Origin: an uncultured Candidatus Saccharibacteria bacterium
GTDB lineage: Bacteria; Patescibacteriota; Dojkabacteria; J137
Assembly: GCA_965230975.1 (NCBI GenBank)
Contig: OZ246402.1
Location: forward strand, 711,228 to 775,227
Direction: 5' to 3'
DNA: 64,000 bases
Shown: one piece after another, positions 1-61,969 of the stretch
How the letters are laid out: every line of letters begins with the position of its first letter
Position numbering within the stretch: the first letter of the stretch is position 1
Notes under the pieces: model-generated
What the model was told of the DNA's origin: nothing
Database searches by the model: none
Seen by the model: the letters and a program-made list of their open reading frames with translations, nothing else
Program-made: the position numbers and the translations under genes

Positions 1-317
1 AGGCTGCTATAGATGAAACAAGAAGACGAAGAAAAATTCAAGATGATTTTAATAAAGAGCACGGCATTGTGCCTACATCTATTGTAAAAGAGATTAAAGA
101 TCAGTTAGATAAATTTAAAAATAATGAGGATGAAAAACTAGATGAGAAGGAGCAAGATTTAATAAAACAGGCTGAAAGTTACAAAGCAATGCCAAAATCT
201 GACCAAAAAAGATTTATTAAAGAGGTTAAATTTCAAATGCAACTATTTGCAGACATGCTAGAATTTGAAAAAGCTGCAGAGCTTAGAGATGTTTTAAACG
301 ATATTGAAGGCAAGTAG
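1..317 (+). CDS. uvrB: Excinuclease ABC subunit B, C-terminal fragment (5' end lies outside the window)
   Basis: The open frame runs from base 1 and ends in a UVR-domain-like motif (EFEKAAELRDVL) typical of the UvrB C-terminus. The ORF track shows only the last 82 aa. Confidence 0.7.
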   Translation, partial: AAIDETRRRRKIQDDFNKEHGIVPTSIVKEIKDQLDKFKNNEDEKLDEKEQDLIKQAESYKAMPKSDQKRFIKEVKFQMQLFADMLEFEKAAELRDVLNDIEGK

Positions 318-323
318 CCTGGT

Positions 324-839
324 TTAAAAGCTAAATAACACTATTGCTGTTGCTTGGCTTACATTCAAACTTGCTCCTTTACCGTACATTGGTATAAAAA
401 CACTTTCATCACATTTTTCTAAAGTTTTTTTATTAACTCCAAAAACTTCACTACCGGCTACAAAACAAATTTTATTTACACCATCTAGCATTTCTGGTAA
501 TTCAAACAAGTGTTTTGCAGTATCTGTTAATTCAATTGCAATAATTTTAAAACCTTTATTTTTAAGTTCTGTTAAAAGCTCCGATGTAGATTCTTTGTAC
601 ATCCATTCAACAGACTCTTCTTTATGACGTGATGTTTTTTGTAAGTCTTTTCCGAATGGGGGTTGGTGAGAAATGCCAGTTAAGTAAATTCTTCTTACAG
701 CAGCAGCATCTGCAGTTCTAAAAAGACTTGCAACGTTTACCGCATATTGTAAGTTCTCTAAAACTAAGTATATTTCTTGGTCTCTTTTTGTTGGTTTTTT
801 TAAAAACTTTTTTACTTCTTTTTTGTTTAATTGTCTCAT
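324..839 (-). CDS. SPOUT (TrmH/SpoU family) RNA 2'-O-methyltransferase
   Basis: 171 aa. The C-terminal SpoU-like motifs are present (ICFVAGSEVFGV ... IPMYGKGASLNVSQATAIVLF). Confidence 0.65.
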   Translation of the reverse strand: MRQLNKKEVKKFLKKPTKRDQEIYLVLENLQYAVNVASLFRTADAAAVRRIYLTGISHQPPFGKDLQKTSRHKEESVEWMYKESTSELLTELKNKGFKIIAIELTDTAKHLFELPEMLDGVNKICFVAGSEVFGVNKKTLEKCDESVFIPMYGKGASLNVSQATAIVLFSF

Positions 840-901
840 GTATGAATTATATTAAAAAAAGATGAGTTTGCATAATTTAAATAAAATCGGGATAATTAAG
901 C

Positions 902-1603
902 ATGGATTACAAAATTGATAAAGATAGAGTAAAAGAATATTTTAAAAATAAAACTTGGTATTATAACTCTATAGCAGAGTTTGAAATTTTAGCCGCATCA
1001 AAAGATGGATTATCTGAAAACGAAAAGTCAATTTTAAGCAATAGAAAAATTGAACTTGTAAATTATATTGCAGAACTTTTAGAATCTGAGCAAATAGCTT
1101 TAGCACAAGATGGTGAGGATTACGATATAGATAGAAAACCTATAGATACAATTGTAATTCATCACTCAGGCAGTTCTTGTTCAAGAGCTTCTAACCCAGA
1201 AAGCTATATAAATGCTTTAGAGTTGATTATGCTTTATGCGCCGGTTTTTAAAAGTAAAAAAAGAGATTATGGAATGTGGTCTGGTCACTTTTTCAATAAC
1301 AAGATGACTTTTATTCCATATCATTATTTAATTTACAAAGATGGTTCTTTTTCAAACCCGCTAAAAGACGAGTATATTGGCTGGCACGCAGGTAATTGGG
1401 ACGTAAATACAAGGAGTATTGCAATAACCTTTGTTGATGATCTTGAAAATAGAGAACCAACTGAAATAGCTATGCTTACAGCTAGAGATTTAATTAAAAA
1501 ATATCCAAATGCAAAACTTGTAGGGCATTCAGAAGTTTCACCTACCGTTTGCCCGGGAAATTTATTTAATATTAAAGGTGGGTGGAAAGACAAACTATTA
1601 TGA
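902..1603 (+). CDS. N-acetylmuramoyl-L-alanine amidase (amidase_2/PGRP fold)
   Basis: Zn-amidase motifs are present: IVIHHSGS, GWHAGNW and a C-terminal H...C (GHSEVSPTVCPG). Confidence 0.7.
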   Translation: MDYKIDKDRVKEYFKNKTWYYNSIAEFEILAASKDGLSENEKSILSNRKIELVNYIAELLESEQIALAQDGEDYDIDRKPIDTIVIHHSGSSCSRASNPESYINALELIMLYAPVFKSKKRDYGMWSGHFFNNKMTFIPYHYLIYKDGSFSNPLKDEYIGWHAGNWDVNTRSIAITFVDDLENREPTEIAMLTARDLIKKYPNAKLVGHSEVSPTVCPGNLFNIKGGWKDKLL

Positions 1604-2241
1604 AAAACGTCATGAGAATTATATTCACTCTTTCTTTAGTTATACTTTTTTTAAGCTTGTGTCTTGGAATAATTTCTATTGGATACTCGGGAATTTGGTT
1701 ACATACATATAATGTTTTTACAGAGAGAACCAAAGTTGCAGATATAGAGCTTTCAGAACTTAAAGAAGATGATGGTGGTCAATATGTTGATGTTGTATAT
1801 AAAGAATATAAACAGCCAACTGGTTTGGAAAGTGTTTTAGGAATATCTTCTATAAAGATATCTGAAAAATCATTTAAAATTTATGGAGATTCTATTTATA
1901 TTGGTGGTCCGATTTTAAAGTTTAAAGATGAATTAACTCTTTTTAACTTTAAAACTATGTACAAGCTTGCAAAGATTTATGGAAGATATTCTGACAATAA
2001 TCAGGAGATTAGTAGAAATGACATAGCTTTAACAAGTTATTCGTATGATTTGAATGATGGCTATGGTGATTGGAAGAATGTTTTTGAAGTTTATAGATCT
2101 GATTCTTTTGTAGGAGAGGTTTATAGGCAATTTATAGATACAACTCAATTAAGTGAGCCGGGTCAGTTTGCAACAAATAGACTTTTAAAATACGAGTTGT
2201 ATATAGCCAATTCCGGGTTTATTTGGGAATATGTTGAATAG
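1600..2241 (+). CDS. Hypothetical membrane-anchored protein
   Basis: The start was moved to the MKNVMRI Met, which makes an ATGA stop/start overlap with the amidase. An N-terminal TM helix is present. No recognisable domain. Confidence 0.45.
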   Translation: MKNVMRIIFTLSLVILFLSLCLGIISIGYSGIWLHTYNVFTERTKVADIELSELKEDDGGQYVDVVYKEYKQPTGLESVLGISSIKISEKSFKIYGDSIYIGGPILKFKDELTLFNFKTMYKLAKIYGRYSDNNQEISRNDIALTSYSYDLNDGYGDWKNVFEVYRSDSFVGEVYRQFIDTTQLSEPGQFATNRLLKYELYIANSGFIWEYVE

Positions 2242-2297
2242 TTACCTAGGTGTTTAAAATAAATTGGATTTAGCATATAATCGCAAAGTATTTAAAC

Positions 2298-2369
2298 GGT
2301 GACATGGCCAAGTGGTAAGGCGAGAGTCTGCAAAACTCTTATTCCCCGGTTCGAATCCGGGTGTCACCT
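2298..2369 (+). tRNA. tRNA-Cys (anticodon GCA)
   Basis: Cloverleaf read by hand. Acceptor GGTGACA/TGTCACC. Anticodon stem AGAGT/ACTCT with loop CTGCAAA. T-arm CCCGG-TTCGAAT-CCGGG. Discriminator is U. No encoded CCA. Confidence 0.9.
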
Positions 2370-2384
2370 TAAAATTCAAAATAA

Positions 2385-2523
2385 TCTCTCTCCCCAATCC
2401 CTCTCTCATAATATGAAAGAGGGCTGGTTCGATTCCCACTGTCACCTTGCTAAAATACGTATTTACCTCTCTCCTCAATTCCTCTCTCACAATGTGAAAG
2501 AGGACTCGAATCCGGGTGTCACC
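2385..2523 (+). repeat. Two tandem degenerate ~82-bp units, each ending in a tRNA-Cys 3'-half-like segment
   Basis: Unit A ends ...gaaagagGGCTGGTTCGATTCCCACTGTCACCtt and unit B ends ...gaaagagGACTCGAATCCGGGTGTCACCtt. The genuine tRNA-Cys 3' end reads GGTTCGAATCCGGGTGTCACCtt. Each unit also carries a CCTCTCTCA...TGAAAGAGG inverted repeat. Confidence 0.5.
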
Positions 2524-2533
2524 TTAAAATCAA

Positions 2534-3679
2534 CTAAGACTTCTTATTTAAGCTTCGTTCTACTAAGCTCATTGCTATAAACCCCACAATACCTATGATT
2601 ATAAAGCTATCGTAAAAGCCAAAATATGTAATTAAGATTGCTGATAATATATAAAAGATAGCGGTAGCTATATTTGTTGTAATTTCTCTAATAACAATAA
2701 ACTCTATTTTAATATCTGAATGTTTTGAATTATTCATTAACTCAAAATCTATTACATCTGAAACAGATGATCTAAATACCTCATTTAATTTATATACAGT
2801 ATCTGTTATTAAGGCTGTTATGTAGTTAAAAGTAAAAGCCCTAAAAAACCATGCAAAGGTAGAAGTCCACTTAACTTTATCAAATATCTTTAACTCGTTT
2901 TTTCTATTTACAATTTTTCCAACAGTATATGCTATTAAAATTGATATAAAATTTACTATCGTAAATAAAATACCTACTTGCAAGAAACTATCTTTAAAAA
3001 GTAAAAATATAAATAATGGCCATAAAATATTAAAGTTTTCAGTTATAACTCTGCCGATTTTAAATAGAATAATTTTTTTAGATTCAACTGTTTGTAAACT
3101 TGCATGTAAATTTAATTTTTTATCTAATTTGAAATCATTCATTGCAATTACAGGTATTATTGAACCTATATAAAGTATCAAAGCAATTAACATTGTACCG
3201 TTTAAATTCAAAAACTGAGCAGTCAAACCTCCAAGCAAAGGATGTATTATTGCTAACAATATAAATGCGATTTTTCTTAAGCTAAAAAGTCTAGGTCTGT
3301 TTATATCTGTTGTGTTATGACCCAGAATATAAATCACAGGAATATAATGGAATATGTTTCCTATGGCATTAAATAAAACCCACAAAACTAAAGTACCAAC
3401 AGATAATTGTGAATCAAAGTAAATTAATATAGAAGCTAGTGAGTAAAATAAAGCTCCAATGGTCAATGATTTTTTTATACCTATTTTAAATAAAATTTCT
3501 ACAAAAAACTTAAGTAAACTACCGTGAACAAGATGTATTAACGCTACCGGTATTACAGCAAGCAGTACTGACTCACCAAGTTTTTGGTAAAAGAATAAAA
3601 CCCCAAATATAAAAACTAAAGAGTGTGCGAATTCAAAAAGAAGATCTGAAATGGTTATTAAGAAAAAATTTCTCTGCAT
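2534..3679 (-). CDS. Polytopic membrane protein (about 10-12 TM helices, transporter-like), function unknown
   Basis: 381 aa, strongly hydrophobic with periodic TM segments. No catalytic motif recognised. Confidence 0.45.
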   Translation of the reverse strand: MQRNFFLITISDLLFEFAHSLVFIFGVLFFYQKLGESVLLAVIPVALIHLVHGSLLKFFVEILFKIGIKKSLTIGALFYSLASILIYFDSQLSVGTLVLWVLFNAIGNIFHYIPVIYILGHNTTDINRPRLFSLRKIAFILLAIIHPLLGGLTAQFLNLNGTMLIALILYIGSIIPVIAMNDFKLDKKLNLHASLQTVESKKIILFKIGRVITENFNILWPLFIFLLFKDSFLQVGILFTIVNFISILIAYTVGKIVNRKNELKIFDKVKWTSTFAWFFRAFTFNYITALITDTVYKLNEVFRSSVSDVIDFELMNNSKHSDIKIEFIVIREITTNIATAIFYILSAILITYFGFYDSFIIIGIVGFIAMSLVERSLNKKS

Positions 3680-3726
3680 TTAAAAATTATACAGATTATT
3701 TTTGTAGTTGGTAGTGTATTTTAATA

Positions 3727-4806
3727 TTATGCAATTACGCCTCCGCCTAGGCATTCATCTTCGCAATAAAGCACCAGTGATTGCCCAGAAGTTACTGCTC
3801 TTTGAGGTTGTTCAAATATAAACTTTTTGTTTTCTATGTCTAAAGTTCCGCTTTGTGGTTTTTGCCTATATCTAATAGAAGCTGTAAGTTTTACATCTTG
3901 GGTGGTTAGTTTATTTAAAGTATTTGGATTTATAAAATGTATATTTTCTAGCGCAACCTCTTTTTTGTACATTTTTGGGTGGTCTGTACCGTGGCCAACA
4001 AATACAATATTATTTTCAATATCTTTATCTACAACAAAGTAAGGAATTTGTTGGCCGCCAATTCTTAAACCTTCTCTTTGGCCTAAAGTATAAAAGTAAA
4101 CCCCTTTATGTTTCCCAACAACTTTGTTTGAATCAATATCTACAATGTCTCCATCTTTTTCTGGGATACGACTCATTAAGAATTTAAGAACGTTAATTTC
4201 ACCAATAAAACAAATTCCTTGGCTATCTGGTCTTTCTGCATTTGGTAGTTTATATTTTCTTGCAAGTTCTCTTACCATTGGTTTTTCAAATTCTCCAATT
4301 GGGAATAAGCTCTTTGAAAGTTGTTCGTAAGTTAAGTTATACAAAAAGTAAGTTTGGTCTTTATTATTATCAACACCTTTAAGCATTTTAAATTGGGATT
4401 TACCATCAATTTTATCTTCGACTTTTCTTGCATAGTGACCGGTGGCTATTAAATCAGCACCCATCTCCATGGCTTTCTCTAGAAATAACTTAAATTTTAT
4501 CTCTTTATTACACATTACATCAGGGTTTGGGGTTCTGCCTTTTTGGTATTCCGCAAAGAAATATTCAACTACCTTTTCTCTATATTGTTTTTCGAAATTG
4601 AAAGACCGAAATTCAATCCCTAAATGTTTTGCTACAGCTTCTGCAGATTTTTGATCTTCTTCCCAAGGGCACTCAGCTTGAATTCCATAATCATCGCCAG
4701 ACCAGTTCTTCATAAAGATTCCAACAACTTCATAGCCTTGATCCTTCAGCAATGCAGCTGAAACAGCAGAATCTACACCTCCGGATAATCCAACAAAGAC
4801 TTTCAT
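3727..4806 (-). CDS. mnmA: tRNA-specific 2-thiouridylase MnmA
   Basis: PP-loop motif MKVFVGLSGGVDSAV and MnmA-like Cys motifs. The start was trimmed to the Met just before the PP-loop; the ORF-track start at 4923 is probably too long. Confidence 0.85.
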   Translation of the reverse strand: MKVFVGLSGGVDSAVSAALLKDQGYEVVGIFMKNWSGDDYGIQAECPWEEDQKSAEAVAKHLGIEFRSFNFEKQYREKVVEYFFAEYQKGRTPNPDVMCNKEIKFKLFLEKAMEMGADLIATGHYARKVEDKIDGKSQFKMLKGVDNNKDQTYFLYNLTYEQLSKSLFPIGEFEKPMVRELARKYKLPNAERPDSQGICFIGEINVLKFLMSRIPEKDGDIVDIDSNKVVGKHKGVYFYTLGQREGLRIGGQQIPYFVVDKDIENNIVFVGHGTDHPKMYKKEVALENIHFINPNTLNKLTTQDVKLTASIRYRQKPQSGTLDIENKKFIFEQPQRAVTSGQSLVLYCEDECLGGGVIA

Positions 4807-4947
4807 ATGTTTGTTTTCTATAGGGTGACATTTTAACATTAAACTTAATCTTACGACATAGTTATGAATGTATCCTATAGAGAAAAAGTTAGTGCAATCA
4901 TAAATTCGTTTTGTATAATACACGGCATTAACTTTTAAATAATAATA

Positions 4948-5400
4948 ATGCCAAAGAAAGCTACTGGATCAAGAAGTGCATATTATCTTAGGGGTGATAC
5001 TATTATAGATGAAAGCTTTACAGAAGATCAATTAGCTGAATTTAGAGAGCCGGGCTATACTTACCGAGCTGAGGATTTTGAAACATCAAATACTAATGTT
5101 CAAAGATTTTTTGCTATTGCGGGCAATGGTAGATATCATGAATTAACTCCTTCTAACGCTTCTGAGCTTATATCAATTCTGTCGGCTGGTTACCGATTCA
5201 TCTTACCTGTCCCATTAGATAAGTTAAAAGATTATTTAATAGAAGTAGCAATGACAAAAGGGGAATTAGCTTTAAGATTTATTGAGCATAGAAAAAGGGA
5301 AATAGCATTTAAAAGCCCAAGGTTAGGAGCTACTCCCGATTGTGAATTCAAGTATTTGTTTATAACGGAATCAGATAGTAAAAATTCTAAGGAACAATAA
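4948..5400 (+). CDS. Hypothetical protein
   Basis: 150-aa ORF with good coding appearance. It is followed by an intrinsic terminator. Confidence 0.45.
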   Translation: MPKKATGSRSAYYLRGDTIIDESFTEDQLAEFREPGYTYRAEDFETSNTNVQRFFAIAGNGRYHELTPSNASELISILSAGYRFILPVPLDKLKDYLIEVAMTKGELALRFIEHRKREIAFKSPRLGATPDCEFKYLFITESDSKNSKEQ

Positions 5401-45162: not shown

Positions 45163-46380
45163 ATGGATATAGAATCTGATGTAATAACTCAAACCAGCTC
45201 TAAAAAACTCAACCCGTACTCCTTACCATATCTAAGAGAGTACCTTTCTAACCTGAAAAATAATAACTATTCCCGAGAGACACTAGAAAACTACGCACGA
45301 GATTTAGAAATATTTAGCGCATTTTTGTATTATTTAGAGGTCCCATTTGAAAAGATAGAAAAGCTAACTATCAGTGAATTTAAAGGTTTTTTAAGAGAAC
45401 AAAACTATATACCAATACTGCATAAATACCAAGCAGGATATGAACTTACAGAAGCAGATGTAGCTAAAAGCAAAACAGATGTATCTGAAGTAAAAAAAGC
45501 TATGTATAGAGGACAACTATCGGATGCAAGTGTAAATAGAATGCTTTCTGCATTACGTTCTTACCTAACATTTTTAGTAGATAATGATAAACCAATTCCA
45601 ATACCTCCAACTGCTATTAAAATGATCAAGGCAGAAAAGAAAGAAAAGCAGGTTGCAGAACTAAATGAACTTATTCAACTTATTGAATGCCCATTAGAAT
45701 ACGAAGATGAAATTATTGTTCAAAAAAGAAATAGAGCGATTTTAGAACTTATATTTTCAACAGGAATGAGAATTTCTGAAGTAGTAAATCTTAATCGCGA
45801 CCAAATTAAAATGATTAATGGCAGAATATCTGACGATAGAATTTATATAGTAGGTAAAGGAAAAAAACAAAGGTTTGTTTATTTAACACCTAGGGCAATA
45901 GAAAGACTTCAAGAATATTTAGATGATAGAGTCGATGATTACCCAGCTATGTTTATCCCAACTAGAGGAACTAGAAAAGCAACTGAAAACCCTTATATTG
46001 TAAGACTTTCTCAAAACTATATTCAAATGAAAATCGCCTACTACCGAAGAAAACTGGGGATAATTGTCCCAACATCTGCACATAGTTTGCGTCACGGGTT
46101 TGCAACATATATTGCAGAAGAAGGTGCAAACCCTGCAGCAATTCAAAAATTATTGGGGCACTCTTCATTGCAAACTACATCTAAATACGTACATGCGTCT
46201 GATAAATTTGCAGAAAAGGCTCATAGAGATTTTCACCCACTGCAAACAGATGAAGATGACCAAAAAATCCAAGATGATAAAGTTAACAATGTAGAACCTG
46301 AAGCCGAAAATCAACATGAGTCTAAAAATCAAACTGACTTTGAGCCTTCAATTGAAAGTTTAGATACTTTTGCAAGCTAA
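45163..46380 (+). CDS. Tyrosine site-specific recombinase (XerC/XerD-like) with acidic C-terminal extension
   Basis: N-terminal SAM-like core-binding domain. Catalytic R...HxxR...Y: LRHGFATY...LLGHSSLQTTSKYVH. About 70 extra C-terminal residues, D/E-rich. Confidence 0.8.
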   Translation: MDIESDVITQTSSKKLNPYSLPYLREYLSNLKNNNYSRETLENYARDLEIFSAFLYYLEVPFEKIEKLTISEFKGFLREQNYIPILHKYQAGYELTEADVAKSKTDVSEVKKAMYRGQLSDASVNRMLSALRSYLTFLVDNDKPIPIPPTAIKMIKAEKKEKQVAELNELIQLIECPLEYEDEIIVQKRNRAILELIFSTGMRISEVVNLNRDQIKMINGRISDDRIYIVGKGKKQRFVYLTPRAIERLQEYLDDRVDDYPAMFIPTRGTRKATENPYIVRLSQNYIQMKIAYYRRKLGIIVPTSAHSLRHGFATYIAEEGANPAAIQKLLGHSSLQTTSKYVHASDKFAEKAHRDFHPLQTDEDDQKIQDDKVNNVEPEAENQHESKNQTDFEPSIESLDTFAS

Positions 46381-60866: not shown

Positions 60867-60886
60867 TTTGTTGAGGGATCGTCTAA
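60867..60886 (+). repeat. Partial duplicate of the tRNA-Gln 5' end
   Basis: TTGAGGGATCGTCTAATG versus the genuine tRNA 5' end TTGCGGGATCGTCTAATG: 17 of 18 identical. It lies 140 bp upstream of the tRNA. Confidence 0.35.
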
Positions 60887-61008
60887 TGCTCAATAAGACA
60901 ATATTTATGCAAACAAAGTGTAGCATCAATATATTGTCGCATTAGTCACGATTTATAGGGAGTAGGACTTTAGAATTATTAAAAGGAGTAATGCACTTTT
61001 AACAATGT

Positions 61009-61079
61009 TGCGGGATCGTCTAATGGTAGGACGATGGTTTCTGGAGCCATCTATCTAGGTTCGAATCCTAGTCCCGCAA
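61009..61079 (+). tRNA. tRNA-Gln (anticodon CUG)
   Basis: TGCGGGA-TC-GTCT-AATGGTA-GGAC-G-ATGGT-TTCTGGA-GCCAT-CTAT-CTAGG-TTCGAAT-CCTAG-TCCCGCA-A. The U1-A72 pair is typical of tRNA-Gln. Confidence 0.85.
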
Positions 61080-61147
61080 ATTTCAACATTCCTTTAACAC
61101 TCCTCAAAACTTACTGTATAATCTCCAAATCATTTGAGAAAATATAT

Positions 61148-61948
61148 ATGAATAGATTTGAAATAATACAACTTCCTTCTAAGTATATTTCTGAAAAAGC
61201 TGCCATTAAATTTAAGTTAGCAAGTAAAGACCTTAGGTTGTTAAAACAAAAACTTCAAGTAAATAATATCTGTATTAGAGGAGGATTTATTATCGACACA
61301 CTTATAGGTAAAAACCCAAAAGATATAGATATTTTCTATATTTCTCAAAATGCTTTAAGTACTCAAAAAGAGTCCTGCATATGTGATTCTTTTAAAAATA
61401 CCTATTTGACTTTAAAAAATGATTTATCTCTAATAAGCAATTACGAAATTGACTGGGGTCATTATGGTAAGAATGAATTAGTATTACCTTTAGTAGAATG
61501 TATATGTGGCTATCTAACTCAAAGTTTGGATTTCCTTTCATTATTTGTACTTGATATAAATGGCAAGGTTTGGACCAACAAATATGGTCTTTACTGTTTT
61601 CAAAATCAAATTTGGGAGATAACACCAATGACCTGGATGACATATTCCCATTTTATGGCAGATAAGCCAGTAGATTTTTATGATCTTTATACTGGAATTT
61701 GCTTAAAAGTAATTCGTCATATTAAAGAAGGTAAAGCTAACAAAATAGGGCCAATGACTAAAGAACTATTAGAAAATTTTCATTATGTTCTGCAAAAAAT
61801 AAAACCTGAATCTGAAAGAGGCAAAAATATTGTTGGAAGATTTAATAAAAACGAGCTTAGTTTAGTAGATTTAAAAAAAATCTTAGCTATTTTAGAAATT
61901 GAAACTTCAGAGTTAATAATGATTCAATTTTCTAGAATTATAGGCTAA
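61148..61948 (+). CDS. Minimal pol-beta-superfamily nucleotidyltransferase-fold protein, function unknown
   Basis: G[GS]-x12-DxD motif IRGGFIIDTLIGKNPKDIDIF, with a possible third acidic residue in FVLDING. The start was trimmed to MNRFEII to avoid the tRNA. Confidence 0.4.
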   Translation: MNRFEIIQLPSKYISEKAAIKFKLASKDLRLLKQKLQVNNICIRGGFIIDTLIGKNPKDIDIFYISQNALSTQKESCICDSFKNTYLTLKNDLSLISNYEIDWGHYGKNELVLPLVECICGYLTQSLDFLSLFVLDINGKVWTNKYGLYCFQNQIWEITPMTWMTYSHFMADKPVDFYDLYTGICLKVIRHIKEGKANKIGPMTKELLENFHYVLQKIKPESERGKNIVGRFNKNELSLVDLKKILAILEIETSELIMIQFSRIIG

Positions 61949-61969
61949 GCAATAAAGCGAACATTTAAA

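Follow-up and report, generated by a model that had tools for sequence, protein, structure and literature searches.

The window (the whole stretch of DNA analysed here, 64,000 nt) contains a tRNA-Cys gene that does not encode its CCA end and that is followed on the 3' side by two gene-less units of ~78 nt, each terminated by a displaced copy of the tRNA 3' end (Table 1). The locus is bordered by a conserved gene on either side, and the stop codon of the right one, at 2534, falls just past the native flank of the tRNA gene. Repeats resembling tRNA 3' ends had been reported downstream of the genuine tRNA-Cys in an earlier, sequence-only reading, and a repeat search confirms that they are real, ARAGORN and Rfam placing the genuine tRNA at 2298-2369. 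The two repeated units described there were also recovered, with start-to-start spacings of 78 and 77 nt, and the inverted repeat said to precede each copy is present as a hairpin of 10 bp with one C.A mismatch rather than of 9 bp.

Table 1. Features of the tRNA-Cys locus, and metagenomic copies of the repeat that shares its 40-nt module
Feature	Position	Strand	Basis or remark
213-aa gene, conserved left border	1600-2241	+	ORF list, relatives
Promoter-like TTTAAA-17-TATAAT, upstream of tRNA-Cys	2253-2281	+	Consensus scan, 10/12 matches; pattern match only
tRNA-Cys(GCA)	2298-2369	+	ARAGORN; Rfam RF00005, 68.1 bits
Alpha-type T-arm of tRNA-Cys: CCCGG, TTCGAAT, CCGGG	2345-2349 (CCCGG)		
Acceptor 3' strand and discriminator of tRNA-Cys, TGTCACCT	2362-2369	+	
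Left 25-nt repeat copy, att-core-like, starting in the T-loop and reaching 6 nt beyond the tRNA	2351-2375	+	Bounds the 155-nt insertion
Lead 1, TAAAATTCAAAATAAT	2370-2385	+	Final 14 nt match the MITE copy in L053
Module 1: CT tract CTCTCTCC, hairpin, end GCT	2386-2425	+	Boundaries from the metagenomic-family alignment
Module 1 hairpin: CCCTCTCTCA / loop TAATA / TGAAAGAGGG	2399-2408 / 2414-2423	+	-11.5 kcal/mol, z = -3.3
Displaced beta-type tRNA-Cys 3' fragment, GG-TTCGATT-CCCAC-TGTCACCT	2426-2447	+	Lacks T-stem positions 49-51
Lead 2, TGCTAAAATACGTATTTAC, with palindrome AAATACGTATTT inside	2448-2466	+	Aligns to lead 1 within the 56-nt, 80% repeat
Module 2: CTCTCTCC, hairpin, end ACT	2467-2506	+	
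Module 2 hairpin: TCCTCTCTCA / loop CAATG / TGAAAGAGGA	2480-2489 / 2495-2504	+	-11.9 kcal/mol
Right 25-nt repeat copy: original alpha-type 3' fragment, T-loop onward, with native flank TAAAAT	2506-2530	+	
MFS-like membrane protein gene, convergent on the tRNA, conserved right border	2534-3679	-	ORF list; synteny
155 nt missing from the empty allele	2376-2530 (equivalently 2351-2505)	+	L116 vs L031
78 nt missing from one-unit strains, between GGTTCGA repeats (2348-2354, 2426-2432)	2355-2432	+	
Module-bearing repeat copies	L041, L046, L051, L053 (two copies), L068, L079, L080, L084, L096, L100, L104		Metagenome contigs

Both units share one build, namely a short AT-rich lead (10-19 nt), a 40-nt CT-rich mirror/hairpin module and a 5'-truncated T-arm with the acceptor 3' strand. 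Two exact copies of a 25-nt direct repeat (TCGAATCCGGGTGTCACCTTAAAAT), one at 2351-2375 and the other at 2506-2530, were identified by the repeat search, together with a middle copy at 2429-2453 with 68% identity and a 56-nt repeat spanning lead and module with 80% identity (2370-2425 / 2451-2506). The final alpha-type fragment (CGAAT-CCGGG-TGTCACCT) runs to 2524 and is followed by TAAAATCAAC; the native flank 3' of the right repeat copy, CAACTAAGAC, is the flank found in the empty allele (see below). Each module is composed of the mirror-image CT tract CTCTCTCC, 5-6 nt, the 10-bp hairpin and an end GRCT (both units read ...GAGGRCT), and tract and hairpin together form a sharply bounded 40-nt sequence. 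The C.A mismatch of the hairpin is invariant in both units, and a single compensatory pair, C-G in unit 1 and T-A in unit 2, lies at the base of the stem. The inverted repeat CCTCTCTCA-N5-TGAAAGAGG occurs at 2400-2422 and 2481-2503, against a chance expectation of 0.01 matches per window, and pattern searches found no further copy of the module motifs or of the inverted repeat elsewhere in the 64 kb. Read as sequence, the CT tract CTCTCTCC mirrors the pyrimidine strand of the hairpin (CCTCTCTC) and may lie parallel to the purine strand (GAAAGAGG) in a pyrimidine-purine-pyrimidine triplex; the sole exception in the tract falls at the adenine that is mismatched (C.A) in the hairpin. A likeness of the leads to the native tRNA-Cys flanks of relatives was considered and dropped as too weak, being confined to TAAAAT.

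Both displaced fragments lack the 5' strand of the T-stem and the 5' strand of the acceptor stem, and neither ARAGORN nor Rfam (E<=10) calls a tRNA or pseudo-tRNA on them, only the genuine tRNA-Cys being reported. The suggestion that the repeats could be tRNA-like structured RNAs that are still transcribed gained no support: neither Rfam nor the tRNA models give a signal, a scan of both strands of 2150-2700 detected nothing like a terminator, and covariation amounts to one pair and is not significant. TRF reports no tandem array at the locus, no insert-specific ORF was found, and no Rfam family corresponds to the units or to the metagenomic repeat described below. The repeat search over 2200-2650 revealed internal hairpins and no terminal inverted repeats, such as a MITE would have; the ends of the units are instead direct repeats derived from the tRNA, without a short target-site duplication. 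A long target-site duplication was also rejected, as the adjacent repeat copies that flank each unit (alpha/beta, beta/alpha) differ.

The acceptor stem of tRNA-Cys (2298-2304 / 2363-2369) is nearly palindromic (GGTGACA / TGTCACC). In a read-through transcript of the gene its own 3' strand or any of the three downstream 3'-strand copies is available for pairing, and 2298-2535 is predicted to fold with the 5' end of the tRNA paired to the last 3'-end copy. A tRNA-like fold in which an upstream acceptor 3' strand serves as the 5' strand would be possible only through this near-palindrome and was not retained.

Alleles with zero, one and two units

Conspecific contigs were obtained by looking up the flanking proteins in public assemblies, and they fall into three alleles. 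In the empty allele A, found in L116 (~97.4% nucleotide identity), the alpha-type tRNA is directly followed by TAAAATCAAC within the same synteny. The one-unit allele B is present in L032 and L034, and the two-unit allele C in five cases (the window, L030, L031, L033 and L107). An empty site with the same synteny was also found in the more distant relatives L036, L037, L039 and L109-113, where the neighbouring proteins are 84%, 61-64% or 38% identical. The comparison with relatives proposed in the sequence-only reading therefore does yield empty sites, in the conspecific L116 and beyond, but no occupied, gene-bearing island in the strains sampled. Nor are the same repeats carried everywhere without polymorphism, the pattern that was to have spoken for a simple duplication: the strains have 0, 1 or 2 units. 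Since closely related strains differ in this way, the locus is an insertion hotspot, small and still varying, and not a decaying duplication.

Allele A and one insertion of 155 nt with an exact 25-nt repeat reproduce the allele C of L031 base for base, which is the signature of conservative site-specific integration at the T-loop. The relationship of allele B to the others is less simple. Its tRNA has the 3' end GTGGG-TTCGATT-CCCAC-TGTCACCT, after which come lead 2, module 2 and the alpha fragment, and the window allele from which 2355-2432 has been removed is identical to it except for three adjacent bases, CCC -> GTG, at T-stem positions 49-51. GTG is the exact complement of CAC in the beta 3' strand, and the pairing of the T-stem is thereby restored in allele B. 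A single conservative crossover cannot link B to A or C; what is needed is either a correction of a hybrid, mismatched T-stem at three bases in one step or the import of a whole beta T-arm by homologous recombination. All three allelic tRNAs are good matches to the Rfam model (68.1 to 70.2 bits, the latter for allele B). The middle, beta-type copy of the window is identical to the working tRNA-Cys 3' end of L032 and L034, so that it represents a displaced functional variant of the T-arm and not a decayed one; alpha and beta differ at seven positions, compensatory stem changes included, in strains that otherwise differ by 0-2.6%. The description of the downstream copies as degenerate is thus contradicted at both of them, the last copy being an exact 25-nt repeat and the middle one a T-arm variant at work in sister strains. 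Position 2343, in the variable loop of the tRNA, is polymorphic (T/C) among the alleles: it is C in allele A and in the allele C of L031, and T in B and the remaining C alleles.

For the analysis of mosaicism, positions 1-5250 of the window were compared with L031, L032, L034, L107 and L108. L031 and L032, which carry two units and one unit, are 100% identical over 5.5 kb on the left and 2.1 kb on the right, and the window is identical to L032 to the right of 2426 and 97.5% identical to it on the left. Forty SNPs relative to the window are common to L031 and L032 and lie without exception on the left side of the tRNA; on the right side of the locus, L032 matches the window without a difference over 2.1 kb and L031 over 2.8 kb. 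These comparisons indicate that the alleles reside on mosaic strain backgrounds, with frequent homologous exchange and a breakpoint at or near the tRNA locus, and the exchange of ready-made alleles between strains by homologous recombination is clearly happening. On such mosaic backgrounds the gain and loss of units cannot be dated: either these events are recent or the alleles have been passed between strains. In the sample SRR12762304 the assembly breaks inside tRNA-Cys, just past the anticodon (end of L106, start of L033), which is what the presence of two alleles of the locus in that sample would lead one to expect.

The module in metagenomic DNA and the search for a recombinase

A scan of metagenome contigs for the hairpin returned 66 loci, mostly chance matches, among which the whole 40-nt module was found, with sharp boundaries, in 12 copies (Table 1) from the three samples Ga0247844, Ga0247840 and Ga0364866. 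The carrier is a modular intergenic repeat of ~330 nt with terminal inverted repeats of 25-34 nt (GGCTATGTTACAGAAAATAGTTGTT / AACAACTAT...). It is a MITE of an unrelated bacterium with a genome of the Gram-negative type, which encodes GlpK/GlpF/GlpD, MlaD, GidA/GidB and TrkA/TrkH and has a GC content of 34-39%, against 30% in the window. The repeat often lies 40-60 nt upstream of start codons, and its internal blocks are optional. No tRNAs adjoin the MITE copies. Lead 1 matches the subterminal right end of a MITE copy in L053 at 14/14 positions, and 0/3000 random segments of the window match as well; lead 2 showed no significant similarity to the MITE. When the window insert is read as an attP-like circle, the order of its parts (module 2, core, AAAATTCAAAATAAT) is that found in the MITE (module, 31 nt, AAATTCAAAATAAT). 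This common order supports an origin of the tails (the sequence of the units beyond the tRNA-derived part) in mobile DNA, and likewise the view that the module, adjacent to the core, is an accessory or arm-type site. The module copies resemble one another too closely for a structural test; the one compensatory pair and the invariant mismatch were seen in them.

Pfam scans covered 56/66 of the non-overlapping ORFs of at least 90 aa in the window, and precomputed Pfam assignments were used for the called genes at the flanks of the locus. Within this coverage no integrase or mobility gene was found in or near the inserts, and no phage or plasmid genes flank tRNA-Cys. The one tyrosine recombinase found in the 64-kb window (45163-46380, + strand) lies 43 kb from the locus in a housekeeping context. 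It has 405 aa, with a Phage_integrase domain and a SAM-like N-terminal domain, and is ~100 aa longer than a typical Xer protein; its best NCBIfam matches are XerC/XerD/XerA, all of them under the cut-off, and we regard it as Xer-like. We infer the involvement of an integrase at tRNA-Cys from the form of the locus.

Searches of viral, plasmid and phage collections identified neither a free, circular or full-length element nor a beta-type tRNA-Cys donor, and the donor was not found by a protein-space search either. In viral contigs, scans with the hairpin and with the alpha and beta 3' ends gave chance matches in coding sequence or nothing, the mirror-repeat pattern and that of a tRNA end plus CT tract gave chance matches only, and nhmmer did not find the module. 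Blastn of the locus against plasmids and phages returned nothing relevant. A scan of a genome collection, in which the species of the window was not found, with the tRNA 3' end found only single-copy tRNA-Cys genes, mostly from Fibrobacterota, and a protein-space search for other arrays, with a spurious ORF spanning the units as the query, found nothing.

Origin of the units and alternative explanations

Genomic islands and prophages reportedly insert into tRNA genes by means of tyrosine integrases and may form tandem arrays there, as Reiter et al. 1989 and Williams 2002 are said to have described. The Islander collection comprises 1836 islands with sites in the T-stem region and 125 tandem arrays, and att sites in this region, displaced 3' fragments and tandem arrays are standard in islands of tRNA genes (PMC4383910). 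The tRNA-Cys locus resembles them in that the incoming sequence regenerates the gene and shifts the old 3' fragment away in direct orientation, the repeat extends from the T-loop past the 3' end, relatives have empty sites, and successive insertions stack with the newest one adjoining the gene. The displaced 3' fragment, the conservatively related empty site and the T-loop sublocation are thus all present, but there is no integrase inside the element: the inserts have 77-78 nt (155 nt as a pair) and no genes at all, and, unlike in islands, one allele requires the rewriting of three bases of the T-stem, which goes beyond conservative recombination. CIMEs, in turn, are att-flanked remnants without recombination genes that are mobilised in trans by a related integrative element (PMC5704250; ICEberg 2.0, PMC6323972). 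The units are like them in that att-type repeats flank DNA free of recombinase genes and in the tandem accretion at one att site; they have att sites on both sides and no recombination or transfer genes. Known CIMEs are of kilobase scale and derive from ICEs or IMEs, whereas the element in the window is little more than an attachment site and its mobilisation in trans is putative, with the polymorphism of 0, 1 or 2 units as indirect evidence. With MITEs the units have in common that they are tiny, gene-less and non-autonomous, and the 40-nt module and the 14-mer occur inside the ~330-nt MITE; unlike MITEs they are bounded by tRNA-derived direct repeats and lack terminal inverted repeats and a short target duplication.

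We propose that the locus is a stack of two gene-less micro-insertions of ~78 bp at the T-loop of tRNA-Cys, produced by serial site-specific insertion or excision of micro-elements that consist of att sequence only, and we assign this reading a probability of about one half. Of the serial, integrase-mediated insertion or excision suggested in the sequence-only reading, the att-type footprints would be retained, borne out by empty, one-unit and two-unit alleles, and the island and nearby integrase would be given up in favour of inserts of 77-78 nt without genes. A unit would consist of a tRNA-Cys-like core (from the T-loop to the 3' end, plus a few bases), the AT-rich lead and the 40-nt module. 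An exchange within the GGTTCGA / TCGA that is conserved in the T-loop would join the 3' half of the T-arm and the acceptor strand of the unit to the resident tRNA and displace the old tRNA 3' end downstream, behind the module. From left to right, the locus would then read as the working alpha tRNA, unit 1, the displaced beta end, unit 2 and, last, the original alpha end and its native flank. Cutting and joining would be performed by a site-specific, putatively tyrosine-type recombinase supplied in trans, for which the module may be the accessory or arm-type binding site. A two-unit allele that lost unit 1, from one GGTTCGA repeat to the other, could have given rise to the one-unit allele, with a subsequent hairpin-templated template switch (CCC -> GTG) that re-pairs the hybrid T-stem; the intermediate with the hybrid stem would read TATTC-CCCGG-TTCGATT-CCCAC. 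Template switching that introduces several compensatory changes into a stem in one event has been documented (PMC8794818; PMC7202029), and here too the change turns an imperfect hairpin (CCCGG/CCCAC) into a perfect one, with GTG complementing the opposite arm; unlike the documented cases, this one is deduced from a comparison of alleles, and import of a whole beta T-arm gives the same sequence. Parsimony lends a slight preference to the order empty, two, one over empty, one, two, the history with the fewest changes being A -> C -> C(T) -> B. The predicted junctions are GAGGGCT-GGTTCGA-ATCC... for a circle of 78 nt and GAGGAC-TCGAATCC...TAAAAT-TCAAAATAAT for one of 155 nt.

The build common to both units and the identical end of their modules count in favour of micro-insertions. 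Against them it has to be noted that a circle of 78-155 bp is very small for synapsis by a tyrosine recombinase, that purely conservative exchange leaves the one-unit allele unexplained, and that at the junction of unit 2 the core of the unit and the alpha tRNA agree only in TCGA, followed by a mismatch. The negative searches for a nearby mobility gene, a free element and a donor, and the mosaic backgrounds of the alleles, count against them as well. Several other recombination schemes were rejected when their predicted junctions were not observed: a single conservative crossover placed in the anticodon loop, in the variable loop or in the acceptor strand, coupling sequences of the Tn916 type, IS200/IS605, IS91/ISCR (GTTC target) and integron attC x attI. 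The junctions predicted by these models retain the old T-stem 5' strand or have the target tetranucleotide at both joins.

Some of the same observations would follow if no site-specific recombination had taken place and imported DNA, foreign or conspecific, with tRNA-Cys, lead and module had replaced the resident 3' part by homology-facilitated illegitimate recombination (homologous in the tRNA body, and joined in the T-loop through short homology or illegitimately), allele B being a direct import of the beta T-arm. The 5' strand of the functional T-stem matches the 3' strand in every allele, position 2343 co-varies with the alleles as under co-conversion, the right junctions lie at differing positions of the T-arm (52 vs 55/56), and the recombination breakpoint between the window and L032 (97.5% on the left, 100% on the right) falls at the locus. 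We nevertheless consider such an import rather unlikely: both joins lie exactly at the end of the module (GRCT), which random illegitimate joining would not repeat, the relation of the empty to the two-unit allele is perfectly conservative with a 25-nt repeat, and none of the relatives examined has a native lead and module 3' of tRNA-Cys. Alternatively, one or two ordinary integrase-bearing elements (a prophage or an integrative element) could have entered at tRNA-Cys and later shrunk to their outermost sequence, ~16 nt from one arm and ~40 nt from the other, so that attL-attR scars are what is left. Full-size islands have repeats of the same attL/attR type and the same T-loop sublocation (PMC4383910), the tails share sequence with mobile DNA elsewhere, and a strain-specific insertion of 888 nt, sited exactly where a tRNA-Gln gene of the window ends, illustrates that larger cargo enters tRNA ends. 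Two independent collapses, however, would have to arrive at the same architecture, the same breakpoint between lead and module and nearly equal lengths (77 and 78 nt), no sampled strain has a larger occupant, and strains that differ by one unit are identical over 7.7 kb, so that there was no time for decay unless the strains acquired the allele in finished form; we regard the collapse of islands as unlikely.

It is still less probable that the units are best explained as functional RNA or DNA structures (a hairpin in the pre-tRNA trailer, a protein-binding site or a triplex), with the manner of their arrival secondary. The near-identity of the 40-nt module in two unrelated genomes, the invariant C.A mismatch with one compensatory pair at the stem base, the mirror relation of the CT tract to the pyrimidine strand with its possible parallel alignment to the purine strand (a reading of the sequence), and folding of the hairpin better than that of shuffled sequences (z about -3) would fit a retained structure. 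On the other side stand the lack of any match to an Rfam family and of a terminator-like T run, covariation that is not significant (59/500 shuffles score as high), module copies too alike for a test of structure, and strains and relatives that live without the units. Duplication of the tRNA 3' end and trailer in tandem, by slippage or unequal crossing-over with subsequent decay, would account for the regular period of 77-78 nt and for tails that are 80% identical, but it is refuted for practical purposes: the empty allele has no tail sequence to copy, the middle copy is an intact T-arm variant that works elsewhere, the 40-nt module and the 14-mer are common to the MITE of an unrelated organism, and the one-unit allele combines an indel with three substitutions and is not a simple loss of a unit.

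If the micro-insertions are mobile as such, a tRNA-gene integration system can be reduced to approximately its attachment site and yet spread, and part of an essential tRNA can be replaced in the process; one set of strains would now use a T-arm 3' half and an acceptor strand derived from the insert. Such units would go entirely unnoticed by island finders that ask for an integrase gene or for a minimum length. We also entertain, as a doubtful extension of the micro-insertion reading, the possibility that these are the smallest site-specific integrative elements yet: gene-free, 'att-only' units of ~78 bp that are moved into and out of an essential tRNA gene by a recombinase whose gene lies elsewhere (the integrase of a phage or plasmid, or the resident Xer-like enzyme), that rewrite its T-arm with hairpin-templated repair of the hybrid stem, and whose module is a portable site for a recombinase or accessory protein common to MITEs across phyla. 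The locus provides a clean natural case of a multi-base compensatory change in a tRNA stem, and the number of units (0, 1 or 2) is a compact strain marker for an uncultured bacterium with a small genome.

The tRNA-Gln locus of the window

The 888-nt insertion mentioned above (61080-61967) is located exactly at the 3' end of a tRNA-Gln gene (61008-61080). The window, L267 and L268 carry it and L269 and L271 lack it, and it contains an ORF of 266 aa (61148-61948) with a weak precomputed Pfam match to Gad2. At its right end no clear tRNA-derived repeat was found, only CGCAAATTT / CGAACATTT. On the other side of the gene, 137 nt upstream, a copy of the first 20 nt of tRNA-Gln occurs at 60871-60890, with 18/20 identical positions in the window and 18/18 followed by C in strain L270. 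The copy, which is present in all strains seen, is separated from the gene by gene-less sequence with a long hairpin. By its sequence, 60871-60890 looks like a displaced 5' tRNA fragment and hence like the trace of a second micro-insertion at a tRNA gene.
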